Source: a virus (Duplodnaviria > Heunggongvirae > Uroviricota > Caudoviricetes). Taken from it: a DNA stretch of 21,136 nucleotides. Location of the stretch: IMG/VR virus record IMGVR_UViG_2667528074_000001; one strand, 5' to 3'. Below the pieces are notes generated by a model, which searched no databases, was not told where the DNA came from, and saw nothing but the letters and a program-made list of their open reading frames with translations. Both the position numbers and the translations under genes were made by a program. Shown here piece by piece: positions 958 to 20,926 of this stretch. Each line of letters opens with the position of its first letter. The stretch's first letter is position 1.

Positions 958-2166
958 TTAAACACTCGCCACGTTATACCAGGTGCCGTTAATCAGTTTC
1001 TGAAGCGGTCGGTAATACACACCGCCAATGTTATCTGCCGAATTACTCCCGGTTTCCTGCACATTAATACCTGATAATCCGTGGCCTGAAGGTGAGCGAA
1101 ATGTCCAGGATATCTGGTTACCTCCCGGGTTGTAATACATTTCGGAACCATAACGCACATCCTGCACGCCGCCATTTCGCTGCTGGTAACGGGCATCGAA
1201 ATTTCCATAGTTTGATGGGGTCATCTGTCCGTTTACAGCGAATGTGACGCTACCGTCTGTATTTCTCTGACTATAGAAATGCCAGCCGGAATCATCACCA
1301 AGTTCTGCAACTACAGGTCTGGATTGATTGCCCCATAAATTAAACCCTACGTTCTTCGTGGAACTGTCAGAACTGGATAGCGTAAACCTTCTGCCATTTC
1401 CGGCCTGAATATTTTTTAACGCCATCGCCACGCCATTCTGAAAACGAAATACATGCTGACCATTCGCATAAACATCCAGAATGCCATCGCCGTTTTGTTT
1501 CAGGCCAGTATCGTTATCCCCGAAAGCAATTGAGTTTCCGCCCAGCGCGTTCTGAACACCGATACCAAGCGCACCATTGACCTGAGAACCGCCGCCAACA
1601 GACACTTTATGCGACATGGATATTTCACCCGTCCGCAGATTAATAGTGAACGGGCGAAGTGGACCAATATCGCCATTTTCACCCTGGTTTTCCTGTGTTG
1701 GAATAAGATACAGGAACTCTTCCGAACGACGAAAAATAAGACCAAAAGCGTCGTTGAAAATCCTCAGCGCATTAACACCACGGATTTTAAGTTCCCCGGT
1801 CATGGTGTCACCATCACGCTGAACGGCATTTTTTGCCTTGTCCACCGTGGGTTTTAATCCGAGGTTTTCAACAGCCTCATCCTTGTCTTCCACATCCGAA
1901 AGATTATTTTTCCTCAGCAATGCCTCTTCGTTAATTGCACCGCCCACCAGTAATAATATGGCTTTATATAGCTGATCGTGTTCTTCTTTATTCAGTTCTA
2001 TCCCGGCCTTCTCAATGACACCACAGATTTCCTCCTGAATGGCATCCCACATGGCACTGTTCAGCCAGGTGGCAAGACGTCCTGTGCGAAGATTTCCGTC
2101 AGTAAATCCGTTCTTGCCCGGACCAAACTTATCTTTTACCGCTGTCAGCGTATCAATCCTGTGCAT
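958..2166 (-). CDS. Tail fibre protein, mosaic: P2 gpH / lambda Stf-like C-terminal receptor-binding region
   Basis: ORF track 958..2199; start placed at the ATG at 2166..2164 (MHRIDTLTAV...), which gives an ATGA-type overlap with the upstream gene's stop. C-terminal half (NALGGNSIAFGDNDTGLKQNGDGILDVYANGQHVFRFQNGVA...WHFYSQRNTDGSVTFAVNGQMTPSNYGNFDARY...INGTWYNVASV) matches recalled P2 H C-terminus. The N-terminal ~200 aa is unrelated to P2 H. Confidence 0.85.
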   Translation of the reverse strand: MHRIDTLTAVKDKFGPGKNGFTDGNLRTGRLATWLNSAMWDAIQEEICGVIEKAGIELNKEEHDQLYKAILLLVGGAINEEALLRKNNLSDVEDKDEAVENLGLKPTVDKAKNAVQRDGDTMTGELKIRGVNALRIFNDAFGLIFRRSEEFLYLIPTQENQGENGDIGPLRPFTINLRTGEISMSHKVSVGGGSQVNGALGIGVQNALGGNSIAFGDNDTGLKQNGDGILDVYANGQHVFRFQNGVAMALKNIQAGNGRRFTLSSSDSSTKNVGFNLWGNQSRPVVAELGDDSGWHFYSQRNTDGSVTFAVNGQMTPSNYGNFDARYQQRNGGVQDVRYGSEMYYNPGGNQISWTFRSPSGHGLSGINVQETGSNSADNIGGVYYRPLQKLINGTWYNVASV

Positions 2167-3825: not shown

Positions 3826-4231
3826 TCAGTTCACTCCAGATATCATCAAAAATAATGTTGTGAATATTGCCGTCACGCTGGTAAATGGTAATGGCAAGTG
3901 CCAGCGAGTCTGTCCCGGTCCGGACAGCGTTAATATCAAGACGGGAAGCAGCACCATCCTCCACCATCCACGCCAGCGCCTCACGGGCATAATCTCTGGC
4001 AAGCTGCGGGGTTTTATTTGTCAACTTGCTGCGTCGCAACAGATACAGACGCGACCCCGTGCGATCATTCTGAACCGCAGGCCAGGTATCCCCCCACCAT
4101 CCAAATATCTGCGGCGCATCATCATCCCGCCCGGCACGCCGCCAGGTAAAAAGCGAAATAATCACAGCACGCGTCAGAAGGTCGAGCGAAGCCCCGGTCG
4201 ACACGGATCGCCCGTTAACATTAATCATCAT
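3818..4231 (-). CDS. Baseplate protein, Mu gp46-like (gpW/gp25-like wedge)
   Basis: 137-aa ORF in the conserved position between the spike (gpV-like) and baseplate J-like genes. Confidence 0.68.
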   Translation of the reverse strand: MMINVNGRSVSTGASLDLLTRAVIISLFTWRRAGRDDDAPQIFGWWGDTWPAVQNDRTGSRLYLLRRSKLTNKTPQLARDYAREALAWMVEDGAASRLDINAVRTGTDSLALAITIYQRDGNIHNIIFDDIWSELNG

Positions 4232-9948: not shown

Positions 9949-11444
9949 TATGCTGACTCCTCTGAATACTGGAGACGGAACTGGTTAACCACCGCAAAGA
10001 CACGTAACTGGTTAACATAATCCGGCGGGAACAGCGTGTTCAGTCGGTTCGGGTTATCCGCATCACGCTCAACTGTCAGATACTGTTTAAACAGATCGTA
10101 ATTTTCCACAATACCGGCACGCTCCATCTGACGATATGTCGCCAGAAGCTCCCCTTTGATAACGGCAGGGGTGACAATCGCCTGCCCCGGACCAAAACGG
10201 GTACCATCATTTGCCAGCTTGTGACGTCCGTACTTGCTGGTGATGACCGTTCTCAGTTTGCGAAGAACGTATGCGCTGGTATGCAGTGTTTCACTGTCCA
10301 GATAGCTGTTGTCTGCCACACCATACGCATTCTTTTTGTAGGTGGTTACGGAACGCTGGATCCGCAACGTGCCACCTTCCACATAAGCCGTCGCCACGCC
10401 GTGAGATAAAAGAGTCTGCTGCTCTGTCATGATGAATCGCTTACCTTTCGGTGCCGGAAGCATCCCCACCAGTTCCCCCGTCTGTGTCGGACGGGCCGGG
10501 TCATTGCGGATAAATACCGCTTCACGGGCAAGGCGACTGGCAACCAGTTCATCGACAGGCGACTGGGTTTCTTTTTCGTAACCGGCAAGCGTGATATGTT
10601 GCTGATTATGCATATCTCCGGCATCAACCAGCTCTGACAGCGTTCCCAGTTTTGCGGTATAGACATGCCCGTATAACTGGCGCGCATAACTCCAGCGACC
10701 ACTGCTGTCATTCATTTCGGTCATCATCATATTGATGGAAGCGGCATCGTTAAACGGCAGACCGATAAAGTCGAATGCCTCATCGCCCATAGCAGCAACA
10801 GCGGCGGTAAGATCAGGCGCGCCGCTACCCGCAGTTCCGGCTTCCGTCACGACCTGAAGCCCCGCAGGCAGAAGCTCACCACCACCAGAACCATAATAAT
10901 TCAGGCAGACAGGCAACTCGTTACCATACAGCCCCTTATGGCGGGCAGTCAGTGTCACCACACCTGCATCAGATGACGCCGCAAACGGCAGGGTGATAAC
11001 CCCGTTTACCGCTTCCTTAATCGCGGTGGCAACCGCAGTGGCATCATCGCCATTCACCACAGGCACCTGTACACGGGAGCGCCCGACATACAGACTCAGG
11101 GTGCCGCTTTCCTCTGCTTCTCCGGTAACTGTCACCCTGACCGTCGCCGCCGCCCCTCTGGCTTCCGGTACTGCAATAACATACAGTTCACCGAAAGGAT
11201 CTGTCTGACGGTAGACGTCAACCATACGCGCCAGCTGGCTCCCGGCCCCACAAATCTGACGGGCATAATCTGCCGACGGCATCAGCACCAGGCTGTTAAC
11301 CTCAATGGCGGCATCGTTGCTGGCATGCCCGATCAATAATGCAGGCGCGCTGGTCACTGCTGTATTTGCCGCAGAATTGTCCATCTCGGCGTAGAACAAC
11401 GGCACCAGCGTATTCGACGGAACAGCACTAAAACTTATTGTCAT
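9948..11444 (-). CDS. Tail sheath protein (Mu gpL-like)
   Basis: 498-aa ORF. Size and position upstream of the tube and chaperone genes. ATG at 11444..11442 overlaps the stop of the preceding small ORF (ATGA). Confidence 0.85.
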   Translation of the reverse strand: MTISFSAVPSNTLVPLFYAEMDNSAANTAVTSAPALLIGHASNDAAIEVNSLVLMPSADYARQICGAGSQLARMVDVYRQTDPFGELYVIAVPEARGAAATVRVTVTGEAEESGTLSLYVGRSRVQVPVVNGDDATAVATAIKEAVNGVITLPFAASSDAGVVTLTARHKGLYGNELPVCLNYYGSGGGELLPAGLQVVTEAGTAGSGAPDLTAAVAAMGDEAFDFIGLPFNDAASINMMMTEMNDSSGRWSYARQLYGHVYTAKLGTLSELVDAGDMHNQQHITLAGYEKETQSPVDELVASRLAREAVFIRNDPARPTQTGELVGMLPAPKGKRFIMTEQQTLLSHGVATAYVEGGTLRIQRSVTTYKKNAYGVADNSYLDSETLHTSAYVLRKLRTVITSKYGRHKLANDGTRFGPGQAIVTPAVIKGELLATYRQMERAGIVENYDLFKQYLTVERDADNPNRLNTLFPPDYVNQLRVFAVVNQFRLQYSEESA

Positions 11445-11602
11445 GATTCTTTAGCCTTATCCTGTTTAACACGTACCACATCACCCGCCGCTATACGGCG
11501 AAGCCAGTAGCTGCTTTCTTCCACATTTCGCCCGTCTGAAGGCAAAAGGTCTCCACGGGCAGGGTCAGGAACTGACCGCCCTTTCAGGGGTTTCACAAAC
11601 AT
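11441..11602 (-). CDS. Small conserved phage protein (53 aa), possibly the Mu gp38-like short protein found upstream of the sheath gene
   Basis: Not in the ORF track (below 60 aa). Manual translation from ATG 11602..11600: MFVKPLKGRSVPDPARGDLLPSDGRNVEESSYWLRRIAAGDVVRVKQDKAKES. Its stop TGA overlaps the sheath ATG, and it fills an otherwise empty 168-nt gap. Confidence 0.5.
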   Translation of the reverse strand: MFVKPLKGRSVPDPARGDLLPSDGRNVEESSYWLRRIAAGDVVRVKQDKAKES

Positions 11603-11611
11603 AAGGGACTC

Positions 11612-12175
11612 TTATTTCTGAGGGAAACGCATTTCCAGATGGTGCTCAATGTCACCATCCGGGCCAGTACCAGGATCGATGTAATCCACATCAATACTCA
11701 GCAGGGATAAATCCGGCAGGGCATTCACGTCCTCTGCCTGTCGCGTGTCTCCTTCCGTGATTTCATACTTCGCCGTAAAGTCAAACTGGTAATACAGTTC
11801 GTAACGGTTCAGATCCAGCAGGGTGCCACCGGCATAAACAATCTCGCCCCCCTGCGGGTCCGGCATCCACCCAAGCAGGGCTTTCCAGAGTTCTCTCCGG
11901 ACATCATGAACGGCGTCATAGGCTGCCCACTGCCCCTTTTCATCACGCTCATTGCTGAGCACCACAATCACGGAAAAGCCTTCGGTCAAATCCTGCCAGT
12001 AATCGGTCTGTGATTTTTGCTCCCCAGGCGCATCGTCAGAGGGGACAACATAGGCAGCAGGCAGTCGCAATTTTCCGGCATCAGGGATCGCCTTAAACTG
12101 CGCCGCGCCACCAACCCGATTATCAAAACGCGGGCATCGCTCACGCAACGCCGCAATTATTGTTGTCAGTTTCAT
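11612..12175 (-). CDS. Neck / tail completion protein (Mu gp37-like)
   Basis: 187-aa ORF. ATG 12175..12173 overlaps the upstream stop (ATGA). Sits in the conserved neck region between the head-tail joining genes and the sheath. Exact family not verified. Confidence 0.65.
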   Translation of the reverse strand: MKLTTIIAALRERCPRFDNRVGGAAQFKAIPDAGKLRLPAAYVVPSDDAPGEQKSQTDYWQDLTEGFSVIVVLSNERDEKGQWAAYDAVHDVRRELWKALLGWMPDPQGGEIVYAGGTLLDLNRYELYYQFDFTAKYEITEGDTRQAEDVNALPDLSLLSIDVDYIDPGTGPDGDIEHHLEMRFPQK

Positions 12176-14682: not shown

Positions 14683-15333
14683 TTAAAATTTAAGATTTTT
14701 CAGTGCATTCAGTGCGGCATCCACATCCTCAGCATCACGCAGGGATAAAGCGCCATATCCCCCGACCATGAATGCTTTGGCCTGGGTTCGCGAGAGTCCA
14801 ACATCGCGCAGGACCCGCTCAATAATTTTCTGATCGGGGATCTCCCCACGTGCCAGCGCATTTTTCACATCGCTGATACGTGCCTCATCATTGGAAGGAA
14901 ACGTCACCAGACTGACCTCCCACAGGTCGATCTCTTTCAGCAGGAATACCCCTTTTTCACGGTCGTATTCCCAGTCTTTCAGGATGTAGCCAATAGAAAG
15001 GCCGGTTAAAGAACCGGCCTTCATATGGGCATGTGCACGTTTTGCCAGGGGATCATCATCAACGAGTAATCGCCCCCTGACGTAAAGCCCGACATCATCT
15101 TCTTTCATTTCGGTGTACACACCGATGGGCTCATCCATACGGTGCTGCCAGAGCAACGCAGGCAGCGCCTTTTTTTCGCTCCATTTCTGGAGTGTTGTGG
15201 TAAAGGCACCGGGGACCACCACATCATCGTGGCTGTCCTTAACACCAAAAACAGAACCGTAACCTTCAAATTCCCCGGAATCACTGACAGATTTCAGGTT
15301 CAGCGGTATATCAAGACGCTGTTTTGTCTGCAT
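14683..15333 (-). CDS. Prohead maturation protease, HK97 family
   Basis: ORF track 14683..15363; start placed at ATG 15333 (MQTKQRLDIP...), preceded by AAGGAGAGTGGAG. Motif GYGSVFGVKDSHDDVVVPGAF is typical of HK97-type prohead proteases. Lies between the portal and capsid genes. Confidence 0.88.
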   Translation of the reverse strand: MQTKQRLDIPLNLKSVSDSGEFEGYGSVFGVKDSHDDVVVPGAFTTTLQKWSEKKALPALLWQHRMDEPIGVYTEMKEDDVGLYVRGRLLVDDDPLAKRAHAHMKAGSLTGLSIGYILKDWEYDREKGVFLLKEIDLWEVSLVTFPSNDEARISDVKNALARGEIPDQKIIERVLRDVGLSRTQAKAFMVGGYGALSLRDAEDVDAALNALKNLKF

Positions 15334-16552
15334 CTCCACTCTCCTTTTTCTTACCGTTGTCATCGCCAGCAGAGGGACTGGTGGTCATGTTCATCGGTGT
15401 CAGATACACATCACCGCCCGGTCGGGGATTCATATCTTCCAGATCACGGCAGTCATTAGGGGAATAAATGCCCCAGTTAATCCCCGTGGCATACGCTTCA
15501 AATCGGGATTTCATGTCGCCACGTAACAATGCTCCGGCATTAAATTTGGCGTAAAATCTCCCCTGTTTACTCTCCCTGACCAGCCCCGTATTGATCCGCT
15601 GTTCAATACGGGTCAGGTACGGCACAAGGGAATAGTTAATGAAGCCAAGCCCCAGTTCTTCAATATTGTTGAAGGTGGCGCGATCAGTGTTCTGCACCAT
15701 ATGCAGTGGCACGCGGAACAGGCGACAAATTTCTTCCAGCTGAAACTTGCGGGTTTCCAGGAACTGGCTGTCCTCGGCATTCAGTGCCACCGTTTTCCAG
15801 TCCAGCCCCATTTCCAGAATCATCGGACGATGAGAATTTCCCAGCCCGACATGCCGTTCCTCAAAGTCCTTTTTGATACGCGCATAAGCCTGATCAGAAA
15901 GTTGTTGATCCGTACGCAACACACCGGATGTCACCGCGCCGTTACCAAACAACCTGGCGCCGTGCTCCTCAGTTGCCGCTGCCAGTGAAATGGCCTCACG
16001 CGCATACGCAATCTGATTCAGCCCGACCAATCCGTCCAGCGTAAGAGTGCGCACATGCCAGATTTCATCCTGGGTCAACACATCCACGGAACCATCCGGA
16101 AACGTCACCTGATAAACCGGCTGCCACTGGCTGTTCAGCTTCGGTTCCACACAGCCCGGATCTATCGGAAGAAGCTCCACCACTTCCCCCAGTGCCTTTA
16201 CCTTGTAGGCGTAAAAATTACCCCGCAGACACAGGCAGACAATGACCAGTTCCCAGAATTCCTGCGGCGTCATGTAACCATTGGGTTTTGCCGAAACCAG
16301 CTTATGCAGTCGTTCATCCACCGCCCGTGTTTTAAGGGTACCGGTGATTTTGTAGAGACTGCAGGGCAGCATACCAACAGACTCCGCCAGCACCCTGACG
16401 CAGGAATAGACCGCCGTCAGCCGCATGGCCCGTTGGCTACTGATCCGCTTTCCGGTATAGGTGTCGTATGACAGCCCGATAGCATCAGCCAGTTCTGCTG
16501 GCGTGGTCACCGGCGCATCACTTTTTCGTTGAAATAACCCCGAAAAGAACAC
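15311..16552 (-). CDS. Portal protein, HK97 family
   Basis: 413-aa ORF downstream of the large terminase. Start codon is GTG at 16552..16550, preceded by GGAGG with a 6-nt spacer, and overlaps the stop of the upstream small ORF (TAGTG). Confidence 0.9.
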   Translation of the reverse strand: MFFSGLFQRKSDAPVTTPAELADAIGLSYDTYTGKRISSQRAMRLTAVYSCVRVLAESVGMLPCSLYKITGTLKTRAVDERLHKLVSAKPNGYMTPQEFWELVIVCLCLRGNFYAYKVKALGEVVELLPIDPGCVEPKLNSQWQPVYQVTFPDGSVDVLTQDEIWHVRTLTLDGLVGLNQIAYAREAISLAAATEEHGARLFGNGAVTSGVLRTDQQLSDQAYARIKKDFEERHVGLGNSHRPMILEMGLDWKTVALNAEDSQFLETRKFQLEEICRLFRVPLHMVQNTDRATFNNIEELGLGFINYSLVPYLTRIEQRINTGLVRESKQGRFYAKFNAGALLRGDMKSRFEAYATGINWGIYSPNDCRDLEDMNPRPGGDVYLTPMNMTTSPSAGDDNGKKKESGDADKTAS

Positions 16553-16734
16553 TATTTACCTCCGCCGACAGACTGCCGCGTACGGTCGAGATATCGCGCC
16601 ACCAGCCACGACCAGAACAGGCACAACGCCCCGGCAACAACAAAACCCGCCGGGGGATAAATCAGCCATGTGCCATACGCCAGCAAAAGCGCCCCCAGCA
16701 CGCCCACCAGTGGCGTGAGAATTATCAGAAACAT
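16552..16734 (-). CDS. Small predicted membrane protein (60 aa, two hydrophobic helices) between large terminase and portal
   Basis: ATG 16734..16732 preceded by GAGG (5-nt spacer), 11 nt after the large terminase stop. Stop overlaps the portal GTG. Sequence [60 protein letters not shown]. Confidence 0.5.
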
Positions 16735-16745
16735 AATGACCTCGG

Positions 16746-18503
16746 TTAAAGCGAGCGGATACCAACGCTGACCAGATGCTCAGACAGATCCGGCTCCGGT
16801 TCACCGCCATTGACCAGCATCCGGCTCATTGCTGTAAACATCGCAACAGGACCGTCGATTTTGGCTTCCGGCGTGGATTTATTCGGGAAGATATTGTCGT
16901 TTTTATCCGGTTTCACCGTAACGTTAGACATCATCCAGTTCATGACCGGGTGATTGCTGTGGTGGAAACGTCCGGCATAGACCAGTGATTCCGTTTCCTT
17001 CATGGCCTCTGACAGATTGCGGACCGTCTGCGGAACCTCCACCAGCGGTATCCCTTCTTCAGCCAGTGCCAGGCTGAACTGCATCGCACTCCACGGGTCA
17101 AATCCCAGTTCCCTCAGGTTTTCACCACCAATCCATTCCAGTAAGTCACTTTTTATCTGAGCATGATCGATAACATCACCATCCGTCAGGATGAGCTTAT
17201 CCATCTCCGCCCACTTCCGGTAAAGTTCTGCCTGCTGCCGTGAACACCGTTCCAGTCGCCCTTCCGGAAGCCAGAATTTAAAATCGGCATGAACATGCCC
17301 GTTATCCGTTCGCCAGAGTTTTGCCGCCGCACAGATATCAATCTTATGAGCAAGGTCGACGCCGACCCACATGGGATACGTTTTCAGCTCATGCTGTGGA
17401 GCGATGTATTCACACTTCCCCCACTTAATCATGTCCATCCAGGCAGACTCGGCAGTGACCCACACATTCATGTGTTTGGTAAAAAAATTCACCCGCGCCG
17501 AGACCTGTTCCTTCGCCTTTTTCGCCAGACGACGCAAATCATCCCAGCGTTTACAGATGCCCAGGCCCGGATTCGCTTTCTGCCAGACCGTTTCATCAAA
17601 CGGATCATCTCCCTCATCGAGCGTGTAAATAATCGCAAAGTAGGAGTCGTCTTTTACCGCGCCCTCCACGTCGCTGTTATAGCCTCGTAATACCTTGATG
17701 GCGTAATCGCGTTGCTCGTAACAAATCCCTTCCTTGTTAAAGCCCGCCGTGGTGATACCAAATAACAGGGACTGCAGACGGGCACCGGTTGCCGTTTCCA
17801 GAACGTCCCACACGTCGCGGGTTTTATGTGCATGCAGCTCATCAATAATGGCGCAGTGGATGTTCAGACCGTCCAGGTTGTTTGCATCCGAGGAAAGCGG
17901 TTCAAATTTTGATGCGCTCTGCTCCTGGTAAATCGCCAGCTTGTTGAAATCAAACAATCGCCCGAGTGTCGGCCTGGCTTTTCTGACCATATTTTTGGCG
18001 TCTTCAAACACGATTCTGGCCTGGTCACGCGTGGTTGCGGCTGAATACACCTCAGCCCCGCCTTCACCATCTGCCCCCGTCATATACAGACCGATACCCG
18101 ATGACAGGGTTGATTTTGCGTTTTTACGGGCGACTTCGTTGTACGCCGTCCGGAACCGGCGCACCATCACTGGGCGTCCGCTGCCATCGCTGCGCATGAC
18201 AACTTCCCCGGTCTCTTCATTCACCAGCGGAATGACAAAACCAAAAATATTAATGAGGATAAATACATGCCAGTCCATCAACTCAATGGGCTGACCTGCC
18301 AGCGCCCCTTTTACATGGGGCACAAATTTGTAGAAATTCAGGATGTGCTGCGCACGGGGTTCACTGAAATAAATCCCCCGCTCTTCGCCGTACTTCAGAT
18401 CATCAAGAAAACGCTGGCAGGCCAGACGGACAAATTCGCCAGCGACAATTTCTCCTGCAACAACACGTTCGGCGTAGCGGATCCCGTCAGCCACTTTTGC
18501 CAT
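16746..18503 (-). CDS. Terminase large subunit
   Basis: 585-aa ORF. ATPase motifs present (Walker A-like VARKNAKST, Walker B-like [10 protein letters not shown]) plus a C-terminal nuclease region. ATG 18503 overlaps the small terminase stop (TGATG). Confidence 0.93.
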
Positions 18504-19132: not shown

Positions 19133-19483
19133 TCACTTGATTCGTTCGCGCGCTGTTTTCTCTTTGTGGCAGGGCCAGCACAGACTCCGCAGGTTGCTGT
19201 CTGCGTCTGTTCCGCCATGCGCTTTCGGGATGATGTGGTCGACAGTTTTCGCCTCGCTCACCACACCGACACGCAGACACAACTGACACAGACCTTTATC
19301 GCGCTTCAGAATACGGGCACGAATCACCGTCCATTTTGAGCCATAACCACGCTGGTGGCGGCTCAGTCCGCGCTGGTGCTGTGCCCAGCCTTCACCACGA
19401 TGTTTATCGCAGTAGCCAGAACTGTCTGTCGTTGTGCCTGCGCAGCCTCGCTTACGGCATGCGCGGGGGATCCGTGATGGCAT
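19133..19483 (-). CDS. HNH endonuclease (packaging-associated)
   Basis: 116-aa ORF. Cys-rich N-terminus (CRKRGCAGTTTDSSGYCDKH) and HNH motif (VDHIIPKAHGGTDADSNLRSLCWPCHKEK). Position directly upstream of the small terminase is typical of HK97-like cos phages. Confidence 0.9.
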   Translation of the reverse strand: MPSRIPRACRKRGCAGTTTDSSGYCDKHRGEGWAQHQRGLSRHQRGYGSKWTVIRARILKRDKGLCQLCLRVGVVSEAKTVDHIIPKAHGGTDADSNLRSLCWPCHKEKTARERIK

Positions 19484-19542: not shown

Positions 19543-19755
19543 ATGAAAAATACTATTTCAAAAGGATTTCACCGGACAGGCGTTCTGTTGGCTATTTTGG
19601 TGTTGATGTTGAGCTTTGGTTTCTTTTTATTAACAGGTGCTGGTACAGGAATCTCGTTATTTGCTGTATTAGTTTCCCTGGTATGTGCCTTACTGACATA
19701 CGGCATACTCAGACTGGTCGGATGGGCCGTTAACGGATTCATAAAAGATAACTAA
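19543..19755 (+). CDS. Small membrane protein (70 aa, two predicted TM helices), moron-like, opposite orientation to the late operon
   Basis: ATG 19543 preceded by GGAGA (6-nt spacer). Sequence MKNTISKGFHRTGVLLAILVLMLSFGFFLLTGAGTGISLFAVLVSLVCALLTYGILRLVGWAVNGFIKDN. Followed by the stem-loop at 19765..19789. Locally AT-richer than the flanking structural genes. Confidence 0.55.
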   Translation: MKNTISKGFHRTGVLLAILVLMLSFGFFLLTGAGTGISLFAVLVSLVCALLTYGILRLVGWAVNGFIKDN

Positions 19756-19800: not shown

Positions 19801-20193
19801 TTACTCACGAATCAGGCGAGCACTCTTACCATTCATTTCAATACGCGAATACTGCGGTTTACCATCAATGATGTCTGTCATTACGAACACCTCACCCGGC
19901 TGCAGTTCAACTGCACCTTCCGGTAATTTCATACCGGCAAATACCGGACAGCCCGGATGGCGATCATCTTCTGTTGCTTCCAGCATTGACTCACCAAACC
20001 ACGCCGTTGTAGCGCGACCATCAGCAGCCTTGTAGTGGATCAAGTACTGGTTTTCGCCATCCGCATACTGCGCGCGGGCTTTAACCTCACCCCATTCATC
20101 ACTGATGCGCATCTCCACCAGTTGTGACAGTTCAAACTTAAACGGAGCAGCCACAGCACCAATTACCATTGGTTTGTCTTCTTTCTTTTCCAT
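19801..20193 (-). CDS. Hypothetical protein (130 aa), function unknown
   Basis: ORF track 19801..20244; start placed at ATG 20193..20191, preceded by AGGAGA (5-nt spacer). Acidic, soluble-looking, no recognisable motif. Followed by the 19765..19789 stem-loop. Confidence 0.65.
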   Translation of the reverse strand: MEKKEDKPMVIGAVAAPFKFELSQLVEMRISDEWGEVKARAQYADGENQYLIHYKAADGRATTAWFGESMLEATEDDRHPGCPVFAGMKLPEGAVELQPGEVFVMTDIIDGKPQYSRIEMNGKSARLIRE

Positions 20194-20367
20194 TATCTTC
20201 TCCTGATATCGAAACCCGTCACCGCCCCGGGCGCTGATCAACATTTGAGTATTCGCGGCGACAGAAAGAATTTATTTTATTGAGTAGCAAAAAACACAGA
20301 ATTTCATGCTTTCCGGACACTGGCGTATCCTTCATTTTTCAGCAAAATATTCTGCTCTTACAGGCGA

Positions 20368-20550
20368 TCAGTTCTGCATGCACTGCCGGACACCGTCGAC
20401 AATTTCACAGACCTGAGAAGCTGTATCGAAAAACTGACGCGCCTTATCCAGGCTGACGCATCCCACCAATAAAAAAGGCACCAGTATCGCTACCAGTGCC
20501 CATTTCGCCGCCGTTCGCGGCATTCTGTGTGTCCAGTGTTTTCGCTTCAT
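20368..20550 (-). CDS. Putative small lipoprotein (60 aa)
   Basis: ATG 20550..20548 (MKRKHWTHRMPRTAAKWALVAILVPFLLVGC...). Basic N-region, hydrophobic core and a lipobox-like LVGC, followed by a ~30-aa mature part with two more Cys. The ORF track's longer form starts at TTG 20565. Confidence 0.5.
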   Translation of the reverse strand: MKRKHWTHRMPRTAAKWALVAILVPFLLVGCVSLDKARQFFDTASQVCEIVDGVRQCMQN

Positions 20551-20554
20551 CTCG

Positions 20555-20689
20555 CTATCCACCAATCAATCCGGATAAGCTCAATACTCGCCAGGCGGTG
20601 GAAATGAAAATGGCAACCAACATTGCTGAAAATGAAAGGCCAACAACCACACAGAGAATTCGCGCCAGTTTTATAATGCTATCTGACAT
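20555..20689 (-). CDS. Small single-TM protein (44 aa)
   Basis: Internal ATG 20689..20687 of track ORF 20555..20782. Sequence MSDSIIKLARILCVVVGLSFSAMLVAIFISTAWRVLSLSGLIGG. SD-like AGGGGT upstream. Ends 4 nt before the lipoprotein ATG. Confidence 0.4.
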   Translation of the reverse strand: MSDSIIKLARILCVVVGLSFSAMLVAIFISTAWRVLSLSGLIGG

Positions 20690-20706
20690 ATTTACCCCTG
20701 CCCCAC

Positions 20707-20853
20707 TTACGATTTCACAGCAATGATCAATTTTGCCATCCCATACAGCATCGGAGACACAGCGATACCGACCGCCACCCACTTAATGGCAAAAGCCACC
20801 GCTCTGCTGATGTCATCAGTTACAGGCGCTTTCAATTCAAGGCCGTTTTTCAT
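20707..20853 (-). CDS. Small protein with hydrophobic C-terminal half (48 aa)
   Basis: Internal ATG 20853..20851 of track ORF 20707..20889 (MKNGLELKAPVTDDISRAVAFAIKWVAVGIAVSPMLYGMAKLIIAVKS), GAGG 7 nt upstream. An alternative ATG at 20889 is preceded by AGGAGA with a short spacer. Ends 17 nt before the next small ORF. Confidence 0.35.
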   Translation of the reverse strand: MKNGLELKAPVTDDISRAVAFAIKWVAVGIAVSPMLYGMAKLIIAVKS

Positions 20854-20926
20854 AGTCAACCTCAACAGAATTAGTTTATACTTCCTCATGTTCTCCTTTG
20901 CCTTACCCAGGGCCAGAAACAGAAAA

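Follow-up and report, generated by a model that had tools for sequence, protein, structure and literature searches.

The window examined here is a 21,136-nt stretch of DNA from a virus of the Caudoviricetes (IMG/VR record IMGVR_UViG_2667528074_000001). Direct reading of the sequence revealed that the gene for the large terminase subunit (TerL), a small ORF and the portal gene follow one another on its minus strand (table 1), and matches to the Pfam families Terminase_4, Peptidase_S78 and Phage_capsid were found in the flanking region. The GTG start of the portal gene is the same as that called by PGAP in Escherichia coli C311.

Table 1. Features of the terminase-portal junction in the window.
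Feature	Position	Strand	Evidence or remark
TerL, large terminase subunit gene, 585 aa	16746..18503	-	Pfam TerL_ATPase 8.7e-27, TerL_nuclease 2.3e-51; phrog_9
GAGG, Shine-Dalgarno of the small ORF, inside the 11-nt spacer	16740..16743	-	5 nt 5' of ATG 16734..16732
Small ORF, 60 codons + TAG, two-helix mini-protein, phrog_502	16552..16734	-	Profile, hydropathy, AlphaFold, dN/dS
Transmembrane helix 1, residues 2-25	16660..16731	-	Hydropathy, AlphaFold; near-invariant G11, G14, G21, W23
Tight turn Y26-P27-P28-A29-G30	16645..16659	-	Motif with the highest conservation in the family; helix broken at residue 26 in the AlphaFold model
Transmembrane helix 2, residues 31-46	16597..16644	-	Hydropathy, AlphaFold, alignments; conserved G35, C38, W41, S42
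Variable basic cytoplasmic tail, residues 47-60	16555..16596	-	Least conserved part of the protein, final GG excepted
GGAGG, portal Shine-Dalgarno	16559..16563	-	Inside the small ORF (codons Gly58-Gly59), 6 nt 5' of GTG
Portal gene, 413 aa, GTG start	15311..16552	-	Pfam Phage_portal 3.9e-106

The TAA stop codon of TerL (16748..16746, minus strand) is followed by a spacer of 11 nt (ccGAGGtcatt), and the TAG of the small ORF (16554..16552) shares its G with the GTG of the portal gene (16552..16550), the gaps to the two neighbors being 11 nt and -1 nt, respectively. The GGAGG at Gly58-Gly59 is under a dual constraint, as it both encodes these residues and serves as the ribosome-binding site of the portal gene. 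An initial annotation made from the sequence alone had described this layout without naming a strand (a GAGG 5 nt from the ATG, an 11-nt spacer, a TAGTG overlap and GGAGG at 16559..16563), and every detail proved correct on the minus strand.

Both junctions are conserved. In 13 enterobacterial loci, TAA is followed by 10-12 nt including GAGG and then by ATG. The stop and start codons at the portal junction overlap in all 13 of these loci, with TAATG or TGATG replacing TAGTG in relatives, and GGAGG or GGGGG is present in the final codons of 12 of the 13 ORFs. Such an overlap was also observed for five of ten distant ORFs in the same slot, and three others of the ten run several bases past the portal start; purine-rich, Shine-Dalgarno-like runs occur in four of the ten, although a clear Shine-Dalgarno sequence is usually absent from this distant group. 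Since both junctions are translationally coupled, the small ORF should be expressed within the late packaging/head operon, in agreement with the initial view that it is coupled to both neighbors and produced with the packaging genes. Its GC content is 59%, compared with 52-53% in the neighboring genes; this excess probably reflects a sequence rich in Gly, Ala, Pro, Trp and Leu, so that composition is not informative here.

The only promoter-like site was detected at 16749..16721, with its -10 hexamer lying over the ATG and first codons of the small ORF. A terminator scan at the ORF gave nothing convincing beyond a weak 5-bp stem, RNA folding of the stretch was no better than that of shuffled sequences (z = 0.33), and a search of Rfam at the ORF returned no match. 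The SfII record has a rho-independent terminator inside the ORF; an RNA element or attenuator was nevertheless rejected for the window, based on the z value of the equivalent stretch and the empty Rfam search. As it lacks both a promoter and a terminator of its own, the small ORF is not a classic moron. The moron considered in the initial annotation is further disfavored by the strict position of the gene over long divergence and by its co-inheritance with the portal (see below).

The product of the small ORF is a strongly hydrophobic protein (GRAVY +1.09) with two hydrophobic stretches at approximately residues 2-25 and 31-46, and the AlphaFold model is a helical hairpin (helices 2-25 and 27-56, pLDDT 76), which together bear out the two-helix membrane ORF originally described. 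Every charged residue (R47, D50, R51, R53 and K60) is located in the C-terminal tail. In an alignment of 25 sequences, P27, P28 and G30 of the turn are invariant and Y26 and A29 are present in at least 90% of the proteins; G58 and G59 are also invariant (alignment A1). According to the positive-inside rule, the YPPAG turn is predicted to face the periplasm, and the hairpin would adopt an N-in/C-in topology in the inner membrane with only the tail of approximately 14 residues exposed to the cytoplasm. Tandem-duplicated versions of the hairpin exist, one of them directly upstream of a portal gene. These natural duplicates, together with the conserved glycines G11, G14, G21 and G35, indicate that the hairpins probably pack together as an oligomer. 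Foldseek comparison with PDB gave matches only at E >= 2, a 60-residue hairpin being too simple for an informative fold search, and a sequence profile search of PDB with the protein returned no match.

The lowest conservation in the protein is found in the short cytoplasmic tail, and the highest within the membrane or at the periplasmic turn. Such a distribution, which weighs against the portal-partner role proposed below, would suit an intramembrane or host-membrane target no less well than binding of the portal in the cytoplasm.

The initial annotation had also considered a spurious ORF in a spacer carrying the portal ribosome-binding site. Median dN/dS is 0.22 in the frame of the small ORF, compared with 0.86 and 1.36 in the control frames. 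Homologous proteins form 152 clusters, nearly all of approximately 60 aa and with identity down to 58%, a range which takes in Klebsiella, Enterobacter, Plesiomonas, Yersinia and Hafnia. A profile search added 244 further clusters (at 50% identity), almost all of 45-70 aa, and at 35-45% identity the pattern of two helices and the invariant Gly, Pro and Trp residues are still present. The frame-specific dN/dS (0.22 in this frame only) and this deep conservation refute a spurious ORF and were the grounds for rejecting a pure spacer. We conclude that 16734..16552 on the minus strand is a genuine protein-coding gene in the late head/packaging operon of an enterobacterial prophage of the phiP27/ST64B/SfII type. 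Fusion of the hairpin to TerL or portal by programmed frameshifting was also rejected: no slippery heptamer was found when the junctions were read by eye, the portal frame contains a TAA shortly before the GTG, and the best 150 profile matches included no protein of portal or TerL length.

A more specific proposal is that translation of the ORF passes ribosomes from TerL on to portal and determines the ratio of TerL to portal, with no function for the peptide as such. Both junctions are tightly coupled, the enterobacterial portal Shine-Dalgarno sequence lies inside the ORF, and the C-terminal GG is kept because it encodes GGAGG. However, purifying selection acts on the amino acids (dN/dS of 0.19-0.22 in frame and approximately 1 out of frame), the residues and helices described above persist at low identity, and HK97 couples TerL to portal with no spacer ORF. 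We therefore consider a function as a mere translational spacer very improbable.

The small ORF belongs to an already known family, which has been annotated in phiP27, ST64B and SfII. Its product matched phrog_502 ("membrane protein") with an E-value of 2.1e-26 (92 bits; residues 1-55 on profile positions 3-57/58), and seven distant members (P0139, P0188, P0241, P0266, P0204, P0151 and P0198) matched the same profile at 1e-10 to 1e-14. PHROGs places phrog_502 in the category "moron, auxiliary metabolic gene and host takeover." The same gene is represented by phiP27 L37 (NP_543089), ST64B Sb3 (NP_700376), SfII_03, its SfI counterpart, phiKO2 gp3 and E. coli WP_000478597. The coliphage, Salmonella and Shigella versions are 88-93% identical to the small ORF and have the same length of 60 aa, the same slot and the same junctions. 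The copy in the window differs in its TerL partner, which is of the Evi/vB_EcoM-606R7 type, phiP27 having a type of its own. Full-text literature searches found no functional study of, or paper on, a phrog_502-type family, and searches of Pfam, NCBIfam and PADLOC assigned the hairpin to no family, the only hit being a subthreshold match to TctB (E = 0.031). Among the PADLOC defense profiles, none matched the protein of the window, and its relatives gave noise-level hits only (E = 0.05-0.09).

A tblastn search of 50,697 phage records with the small ORF gave 35 matches, and almost all cultured carriers of known lifestyle in this set are temperate phages or prophages. About one-third of complete E. 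coli genomes contain at least part of a 701-bp query that extends from the 5' end of portal through the ORF into the 3' end of TerL. All loci retrieved by the related-locus search with the closer alignment were from Enterobacterales, apart from two that are probably contaminants. Of ten distant members checked, nine have an HK97-type (PF04860) portal gene as their immediate downstream neighbor, and TerL precedes the ORF in all eight portal-adjacent cases with enough upstream sequence; one family member, P0146 (locus L032), has a neighborhood with no recognizable TerL or portal. A conserved ORF at the terminase-portal junction of homologous phages, the comparison suggested in the initial annotation, is thus present. 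Genes of the phrog_502 family sit between TerL and a PF04860 portal almost without exception, and this location is an empirical trait found here, as it is not included in the PHROG definition. The position can hardly be called unusual, as first thought, because the same gene is annotated in phiP27, ST64B, SfII, SfI and phiKO2, many E. coli genomes match at least part of the query, and the slot is taken by analogous hairpin ORFs in many HK97-type modules of proteobacterial phages.

Linkage was assessed with a table of identities relative to the window and with megablast breakpoints. In phiP27, TerL is only 38% identical to that of the window, whereas the small ORF and the portal are 90% and 96% identical, respectively. 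The reverse was observed for Evi, whose TerL is 99% identical but whose portal is 29% identical, and here the slot holds a different hairpin ORF. These comparisons show that in mosaic phages the small ORF stays with the portal and not with TerL. Among enterobacterial loci with portal identities of 79-96%, the small ORF is always present, except for one frameshifted Shigella copy, and the position of the ORF and its portal partner remain unchanged while portal identity drops to approximately 30%. As an alternative cause, a recombination hot spot at the TerL 3' end could also produce the linkage to the portal.

Two-helix mini-ORFs in the TerL-portal slot were also found in Evi (phrog_7105), in Pseudomonas D3 and FBPa47 (phrog_4810), and in Vibrio K263, pVa5, Ralstonia YO080_4 and Pseudomonas SC_9. 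The proteins of phrog_7105 (Evi, vB_EcoS-716R3 and Ralstonia YO080_4), of phrog_4810 (D3 orf3 and FBPa47), and of K263 and pVa5 occupy the same slot as the small ORF, and they resemble its product as glycine-rich two-helix hairpins of 49-68 aa with a basic tail. Their genes overlap both TerL and portal. On the other hand, neither the IYPPAG turn nor the WSW motif is present in these proteins, and each is paired with a different portal lineage. Profile comparisons revealed weak links (Evi vs. phrog_502, 1.7e-6; window ORF vs. phrog_7105, 0.0027; Evi vs. phrog_4810, 6.5e-4), and an hhalign comparison of the family profile with D3 orf3 gave a probability of 5.6%. A tblastn search of the phage collection with D3 orf3 retrieved no match, D3 itself included, probably owing to the low-complexity filter, and this negative result is therefore uninformative. 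Judged by their sequences, these slot hairpins have diverged beyond secure homology to the small ORF.

No such gene was found in several modules with related portals, namely those of HK97, Bacillus phage Gamma, Rhizobium RHph_Y3_1, Vibrio 1270 and Salmonella SW-37. In HK97 itself, TerL is coupled directly to portal with no spacer ORF, and the direct order assumed for HK97-type modules in the initial annotation holds for this phage. Its absence from HK97 and several other modules indicates that the hairpin gene is accessory rather than universal, and the assembly of related portals in phages that do without it counts against the portal-partner role proposed below.

In some GenBank records (ON470580, ON470584, ON470603 and PQ793804) the small ORF is labeled "head-tail joining protein W," and in phage lambda gene W is flanked by A (TerL) and B (portal). 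If the small ORF were the counterpart of lambda gpW, which acts in head completion or head-tail joining, the shared slot and the similar length (about 60-68 aa) would be accounted for, but gpW is soluble and alpha/beta whereas the hairpin is predicted to be integral to the membrane, no Pfam gpW match was detected at E <= 0.1, and separate head-tail connector and head-closure genes are already present in the module; this reading has next to no chance of being right and is effectively refuted already by the sequence, and the "W" label is a positional misannotation.

What, then, might a hairpin locked to the portal do? Because it is made late and its translation is coupled to that of the portal, it most likely acts during virion morphogenesis. 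A reasonable, if tentative, hypothesis, whose likelihood as a whole we would place somewhat below even, is that this portal-locked late gene encodes a membrane partner of portal or prohead assembly. An oligomer of hairpins embedded in the inner membrane would serve as the partner of the portal and would recruit or nucleate it, so that prohead initiation or packaging may take place at the inner membrane.

A precedent for such a role may be found in T4, where gp40 acts on the membrane-bound gp20 portal initiator. Assembly of this initiator depends on gp40, a viral chaperone, and host YidC takes part in it (PMC9958956). The concept in common would be a small phage protein linking portal assembly to the inner membrane (PMC9958956, PMC3185693). 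There is no sequence similarity to gp40, and no T4-like phage occurred among the 35 tblastn matches from the 50,697 phage records. The T4 portal family also differs from that of the window, and any functional link to gp40 would be by analogy only. In T4, gene 40 is not known to lie next to gene 20. For the hairpin, translational coupling and co-inheritance with the portal are consistent with a gp40-type role.

Another explanation is that the hairpin is a late membrane effector unrelated to assembly, its adjacency to the portal reflecting inherited gene order only. This is possible, although we regard it as doubtful. Such a protein could block entry of the DNA of superinfecting phages, modulate membrane potential or tune lysis timing in a holin- or antiholin-like manner, either by oligomerizing in the inner membrane or by binding a host inner-membrane protein. 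Class II holins and pinholins (such as S68 of phage 21), T4 Imm and HK97 gp15 are small inner-membrane proteins with hydrophobic helices and a charged tail, and T4 Imm and HK97 gp15 are exclusion proteins that block entry of superinfecting DNA. The predicted architecture of the hairpin (two transmembrane helices joined by a short turn, both termini in the cytoplasm and a charged C-terminal tail) is compatible with that of a class II holin or small exclusion protein and is generic for small membrane hairpins. The protein matched no holin family in Pfam and no PADLOC or NCBIfam model. The hairpin gene is fixed beside the portal in the head module and does not lie in a lysis cassette, and related prophages have a separate lysis cassette: in E. 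coli C311 a holin family protein is encoded together with an M15 peptidase upstream of HNH, and locus L006 has a Phage_holin_3_1 match.

Several other properties are in line with an effector, including the conservation of the membrane-embedded part and periplasmic turn rather than the tail, the PHROGs category, the temperate lifestyle of nearly all carriers for which it is known, and the dispensability of the gene in several related head modules. However, exclusion genes are normally patchy and mobile, whereas the hairpin gene keeps one position and one partner over the whole range of portal divergence, and in the absence of its own promoter expression in the prophage state is not expected.

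Returning to the hairpin as a membrane partner of the portal, a broader form of this hypothesis would include the look-alikes in the same slot, all of which would then represent an overlooked core accessory of HK97-type head modules in phages that infect Gram-negative hosts, namely an oligomeric inner-membrane anchor that recruits or nucleates the portal. We consider this generalization unlikely. If it were true, a very large group of temperate phages would resemble T4 in initiating proheads or packaging DNA in association with the membrane, although the factor responsible would have no relationship to gp40.

As a gene the small ORF is unremarkable, and the result to retain is the pattern of a tiny membrane hairpin locked to the portal across proteobacterial HK97-type modules, in an ORF that is often unannotated or mislabeled gpW. 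Under either reading, annotation pipelines should call this hairpin ORF and drop the name W. If the protein is a late exclusion factor or another membrane effector, it would be one more small phage membrane protein. If, on the other hand, portal or prohead assembly is tied to the inner membrane, an idea so far specific to T4 would extend to a large class of temperate phages, and, should the hairpin be the portal anchor, this 60-codon gene would offer a simple genetic handle on membrane-linked assembly.

The small ORF between the large terminase (TerL) and portal genes belongs to the late operon and is translationally coupled to both neighbors; it encodes a conserved membrane hairpin (two hydrophobic helices joined by a tight turn) and is co-inherited with the portal gene. 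Every gene in this part of the window is on the minus strand, and Pfam assigned the neighbors to Terminase_4 (small terminase), TerL_ATPase and TerL_nuclease, Phage_portal (3.9e-106), Peptidase_S78, and Phage_capsid. What the initial annotation had read from the sequence (position, Shine-Dalgarno [SD] motifs, TAGTG overlap, and hydrophobicity) was correct throughout, including the tight coupling to both TerL and portal. The portal start is the one used by the NCBI annotation pipeline in a 96%-identical Escherichia coli prophage, where the small ORF is called as well (WP_000478597.1, "hypothetical protein").

Features of the terminase-portal junction and other small ORFs (window coordinates unless a related locus is named)
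Feature	Position	Strand	Remarks
TerL	18503..16746	-	585 aa; TAA stop at 16748..16746; Pfam TerL_ATPase and TerL_nuclease
TerL-to-ORF spacer		-	11 bases, ccGAGGtcatt; holds GAGG
GAGG, SD of small ORF	16743..16740	-	5 bases ahead of ATG
Small ORF	ATG at 16734 to TAG at 16554..16552	-	60 aa
GGAGG, portal SD	16563..16559	-	6 bases upstream of portal GTG; within small-ORF codons Gly58-Gly59
Portal start GTG	16552..16550	-	first base is last base of small-ORF TAG
HNH endonuclease gene	19133..19483	-
70-aa two-helix ORF	19543..19755	+	opposite to late operon; between HNH gene and ORF 19801..20244 (-)
Three small overlapping ORFs	20368..20565, 20555..20782, 20707..20889	-	right end of window, upstream of packaging genes
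P0146, tandem-duplicated hairpin	L032 1500..1808		102 aa; JGI 3300036819 contig
Unannotated junction hairpin	L040 ~1223..1402		Pseudomonas phage SC_9_H1H8_2017
Unannotated junction hairpin	L038 ~1238..1396		Ralstonia phage YO080_4
Junction hairpin	L043 ~1169..1375		Vibrio phage pVa5; annotated start too far downstream, losing first helix

Several lines of evidence demonstrate that the small ORF is a genuine gene. Its product has a GRAVY of +1.09 and two hydrophobic stretches, all five charged residues lie within the last 14 positions, and PHROG family 502 ("membrane protein") matches its full length (E = 2.1e-26). Homologs fell into 152 protein clusters, the most distant at 58% identity and nearly all of exactly 60 aa, from Escherichia, Shigella, Salmonella, Citrobacter, Klebsiella, Enterobacter, Yersinia, Hafnia, and Plesiomonas. 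Conservation of the ORF at the junction of homologous phages, which the initial annotation had wanted checked, was borne out in enterobacterial relatives. Residues M1, I5, P8, V10, G11, V12, I25, P27, P28, G30, G35, C38, L39, S42, W43, G58, and G59 are invariant in 25 representatives. Pairwise Nei-Gojobori comparison of 13 enterobacterial loci gave a median dN/dS of 0.22 in the annotated frame (dS about 1.0), compared with 0.86 and 1.36 when these columns were read in the two alternative frames. At E ≤ 1e-3, searching 1.8 billion cluster representatives with a profile added 244 clusters, almost all of 45–70 aa, which share G-x-x-G, a ten-letter stretch, G-x-x-C-L-x-W-S, and then a basic tail. 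Given this frame-specific constraint and the depth of conservation, the alternative of a spurious ORF in a spacer was abandoned. AlphaFold2 (43-sequence alignment) predicted a helical hairpin with helices at 2–25 and 27–56 (mean pLDDT 76).

No sign of an RNA-level feature emerged, and Rfam gave no match for the small-ORF stretch. In the SfII record (NC_021857.1, 2370..2419) a "putative rho-independent terminator" is marked within the ORF, but the corresponding window stretch (~16677..16726, minus strand) forms just a 5-bp stem and is no more stable when folded than shuffled sequences (z = 0.33). One of two copies in a Shigella flexneri genome (CP182557.1, second prophage, ~4001-4180 of locus L016) is frameshifted after about codon 27, probably reflecting prophage decay; the other is intact.

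Sequence comparison showed that the small ORF is inherited together with portal and not with TerL. In phiP27, identity to the window is 38% for TerL, 90% for the small ORF, and 96% for portal, and ST64B and SfII show the same pattern (36–37%, 88%, and 87–88%). The TerL of Evi is 99% identical, its portal is 29% identical, and no match to the small ORF was detectable. Megablast alignments with phiP27-type phages run from portal through the small ORF and take in only about 30 nt of the TerL 3' end, and those with Evi-type phages are confined to TerL. A module boundary therefore lies between TerL and the small ORF.

Genomic context was also examined for ten distant family members, all roughly 35–45% identical to the window protein. 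A PF04860 portal gene lies directly downstream in nine, and a PF03354/PF20441 TerL precedes all eight that have enough upstream sequence. The junctions share a pattern in which the ORF begins within the end of TerL or shortly after its stop. At the other end, an overlap of the ORF stop with the portal start (TAGTG, TAATG, or TGATG) is seen at each of the 13 enterobacterial loci and in 5 of 10 distant ORFs from this junction; in three more distant ORFs the overlap with the portal start is several bases long. GGAGG or GGGGG occurs in the last codons of 12 of the 13 enterobacterial ORFs, and a purine-rich, SD-like run in only 4 of the 10 distant ones. Because these codons carry the portal SD, the C-terminal GG is invariant among enterobacterial members, in contrast to the variable remainder of the tail. 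Since the downstream protease may be S78 or S49, the position is tied to TerL and portal rather than to protease type.

Four natural proteins (P0146, P0155, P0159, and P0210) consist of two tandem hairpin repeats, that is, four helices, and one of them, P0159, abuts a portal gene (L031 64..399). P0146 is the only member found outside the TerL-portal junction: Pfam detected neither TerL nor portal in its context (L032 and L033), where unknown proteins of 161 and 320 aa lie on one side and an unknown 100-aa protein and then an S78 protease on the other. The surrounding genes may form a head module of divergent or satellite type.

The initial annotation considered a membrane protein at this position unusual, a view that found no support, as similar hairpins occupy the junction in other lineages. 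Evi has a 53-aa two-helix ORF (phrog_7105, 1.9e-19; weakly phrog_502, 1.7e-6), and Pseudomonas phage D3 (orf3) and FBPa47 have a 54-aa hairpin (phrog_4810). In a small set of widely spread phages that have PF04860 portals, hairpins occurred in Vibrio K263, Vibrio pVa5, E. coli vB_EcoS-716R3, Ralstonia YO080_4, and Pseudomonas SC_9_H1H8_2017, the last in an unannotated 178-nt gap (family profile match about 9e-14). In the same sample the junction lacked a hairpin in Bacillus phage Gamma, Rhizobium RHph_Y3_1, Vibrio 1270, Salmonella SW-37, Streptococcus Javan38 (three soluble ORFs instead), Mycobacterium Rubeelu (a soluble 55-aa ORF), and HK97, where TerL does run directly into portal as had been described for HK97-type modules. 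All carriers in the sample infect proteobacteria, although it is too small for a rule. The hairpin ORFs of SfIV and PY54 are likewise unannotated, and the family is under-called by gene finders. Two records with Gram-positive labels, OR844959.1 ("Enterococcus phage Efm 3-10", 1764 bp; 92.6% DNA match) and JAEWTL010000102.1 ("MAG: Bacillota bacterium"), carry enterobacterial DNA over the small ORF and portal, with an 88%-identical protein in both; they most likely represent contamination or mis-binning rather than evidence for the gene in Firmicutes phages.

The suggestion of a moron found no support, at least in the classic sense: the small ORF lacks a promoter and a terminator of its own, keeps a fixed position, and always accompanies its portal type. 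By contrast, the 70-aa ORF next to the HNH gene, on the opposite strand and without a PHROG match, has the usual look of a moron and appears to be a true moron or cargo gene; an ortholog is annotated in E. coli C311 (WP_033873286.1). The three ORFs at the right end each match a PHROG of unknown function (7528, 4906, and 1115); two are hydrophobic, one has a lipoprotein-like LVGC motif, and they may be part of a (spanin-like) lysis region. The late operon contains one more very small ORF, for a 53-aa DUF2635 protein, with the tail terminator gene on one side and the tail sheath gene on the other (~11441..11602, minus strand, inferred from 11773..11934 of the C311 prophage L030). In the nearest relative with a complete genome, L030, the annotation marks the prohead protease as frameshifted (15014..15663); the window ORF is intact (14683..15363).

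With regard to function, the small-ORF protein matched no holin family, defense model, NCBIfam model, or solved structure. By the positive-inside rule, both termini would be cytoplasmic and the YPPAG turn would face the periplasm, leaving only about 14 residues, those of the tail, within reach of cytoplasmic partners. Side-by-side packing of hairpins as an oligomer is suggested by the glycines that are invariant in both helices and by the tandem hairpin proteins. We tentatively favor a role in which the hairpin would recruit portal to the inner membrane, and prohead initiation or packaging with it, because synteny and portal coupling persist at ~30% portal identity, as we would expect of a morphogenetic accessory factor rather than cargo. 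A precedent is T4, whose membrane-bound gp20 initiator contacts YidC and relies on gp40, a viral chaperone (PMC9958956; PMC3185693). Two points chiefly weaken this portal-linked role: the best-conserved residues are located within the membrane and not in the cytoplasmic tail, and the gene is missing from several related modules. For these same reasons a late membrane effector (acting in exclusion, membrane potential, or lysis timing), although somewhat doubtful, remains a serious rival. A pure translational spacer is very improbable. Least credible is lambda gpW, as the protein is an integral-membrane hairpin and has no gpW Pfam match; the label "head-tail joining protein W" on orthologs in ON470580.1, ON470584.1, ON470603.1, and PQ793804.1 appears to be a positional mis-annotation. 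The remaining probability belongs to some explanation beyond these four.

The small ORF is orthologous to phiP27 L37, ST64B Sb3, SfII_03, and phiKO2 gp3, and a 701-bp query spanning the portal 5' end, the small ORF, and the TerL 3' end matched at least in part 1946 of 5426 complete E. coli genomes (about a third) and over most of its length 289. It therefore belongs to a known, annotated family, for which a full-text literature search found no functional study. What may be new is the general pattern, seen in many HK97-type modules of proteobacterial phages, of a two-helix mini-protein whose gene is locked to that of the portal.
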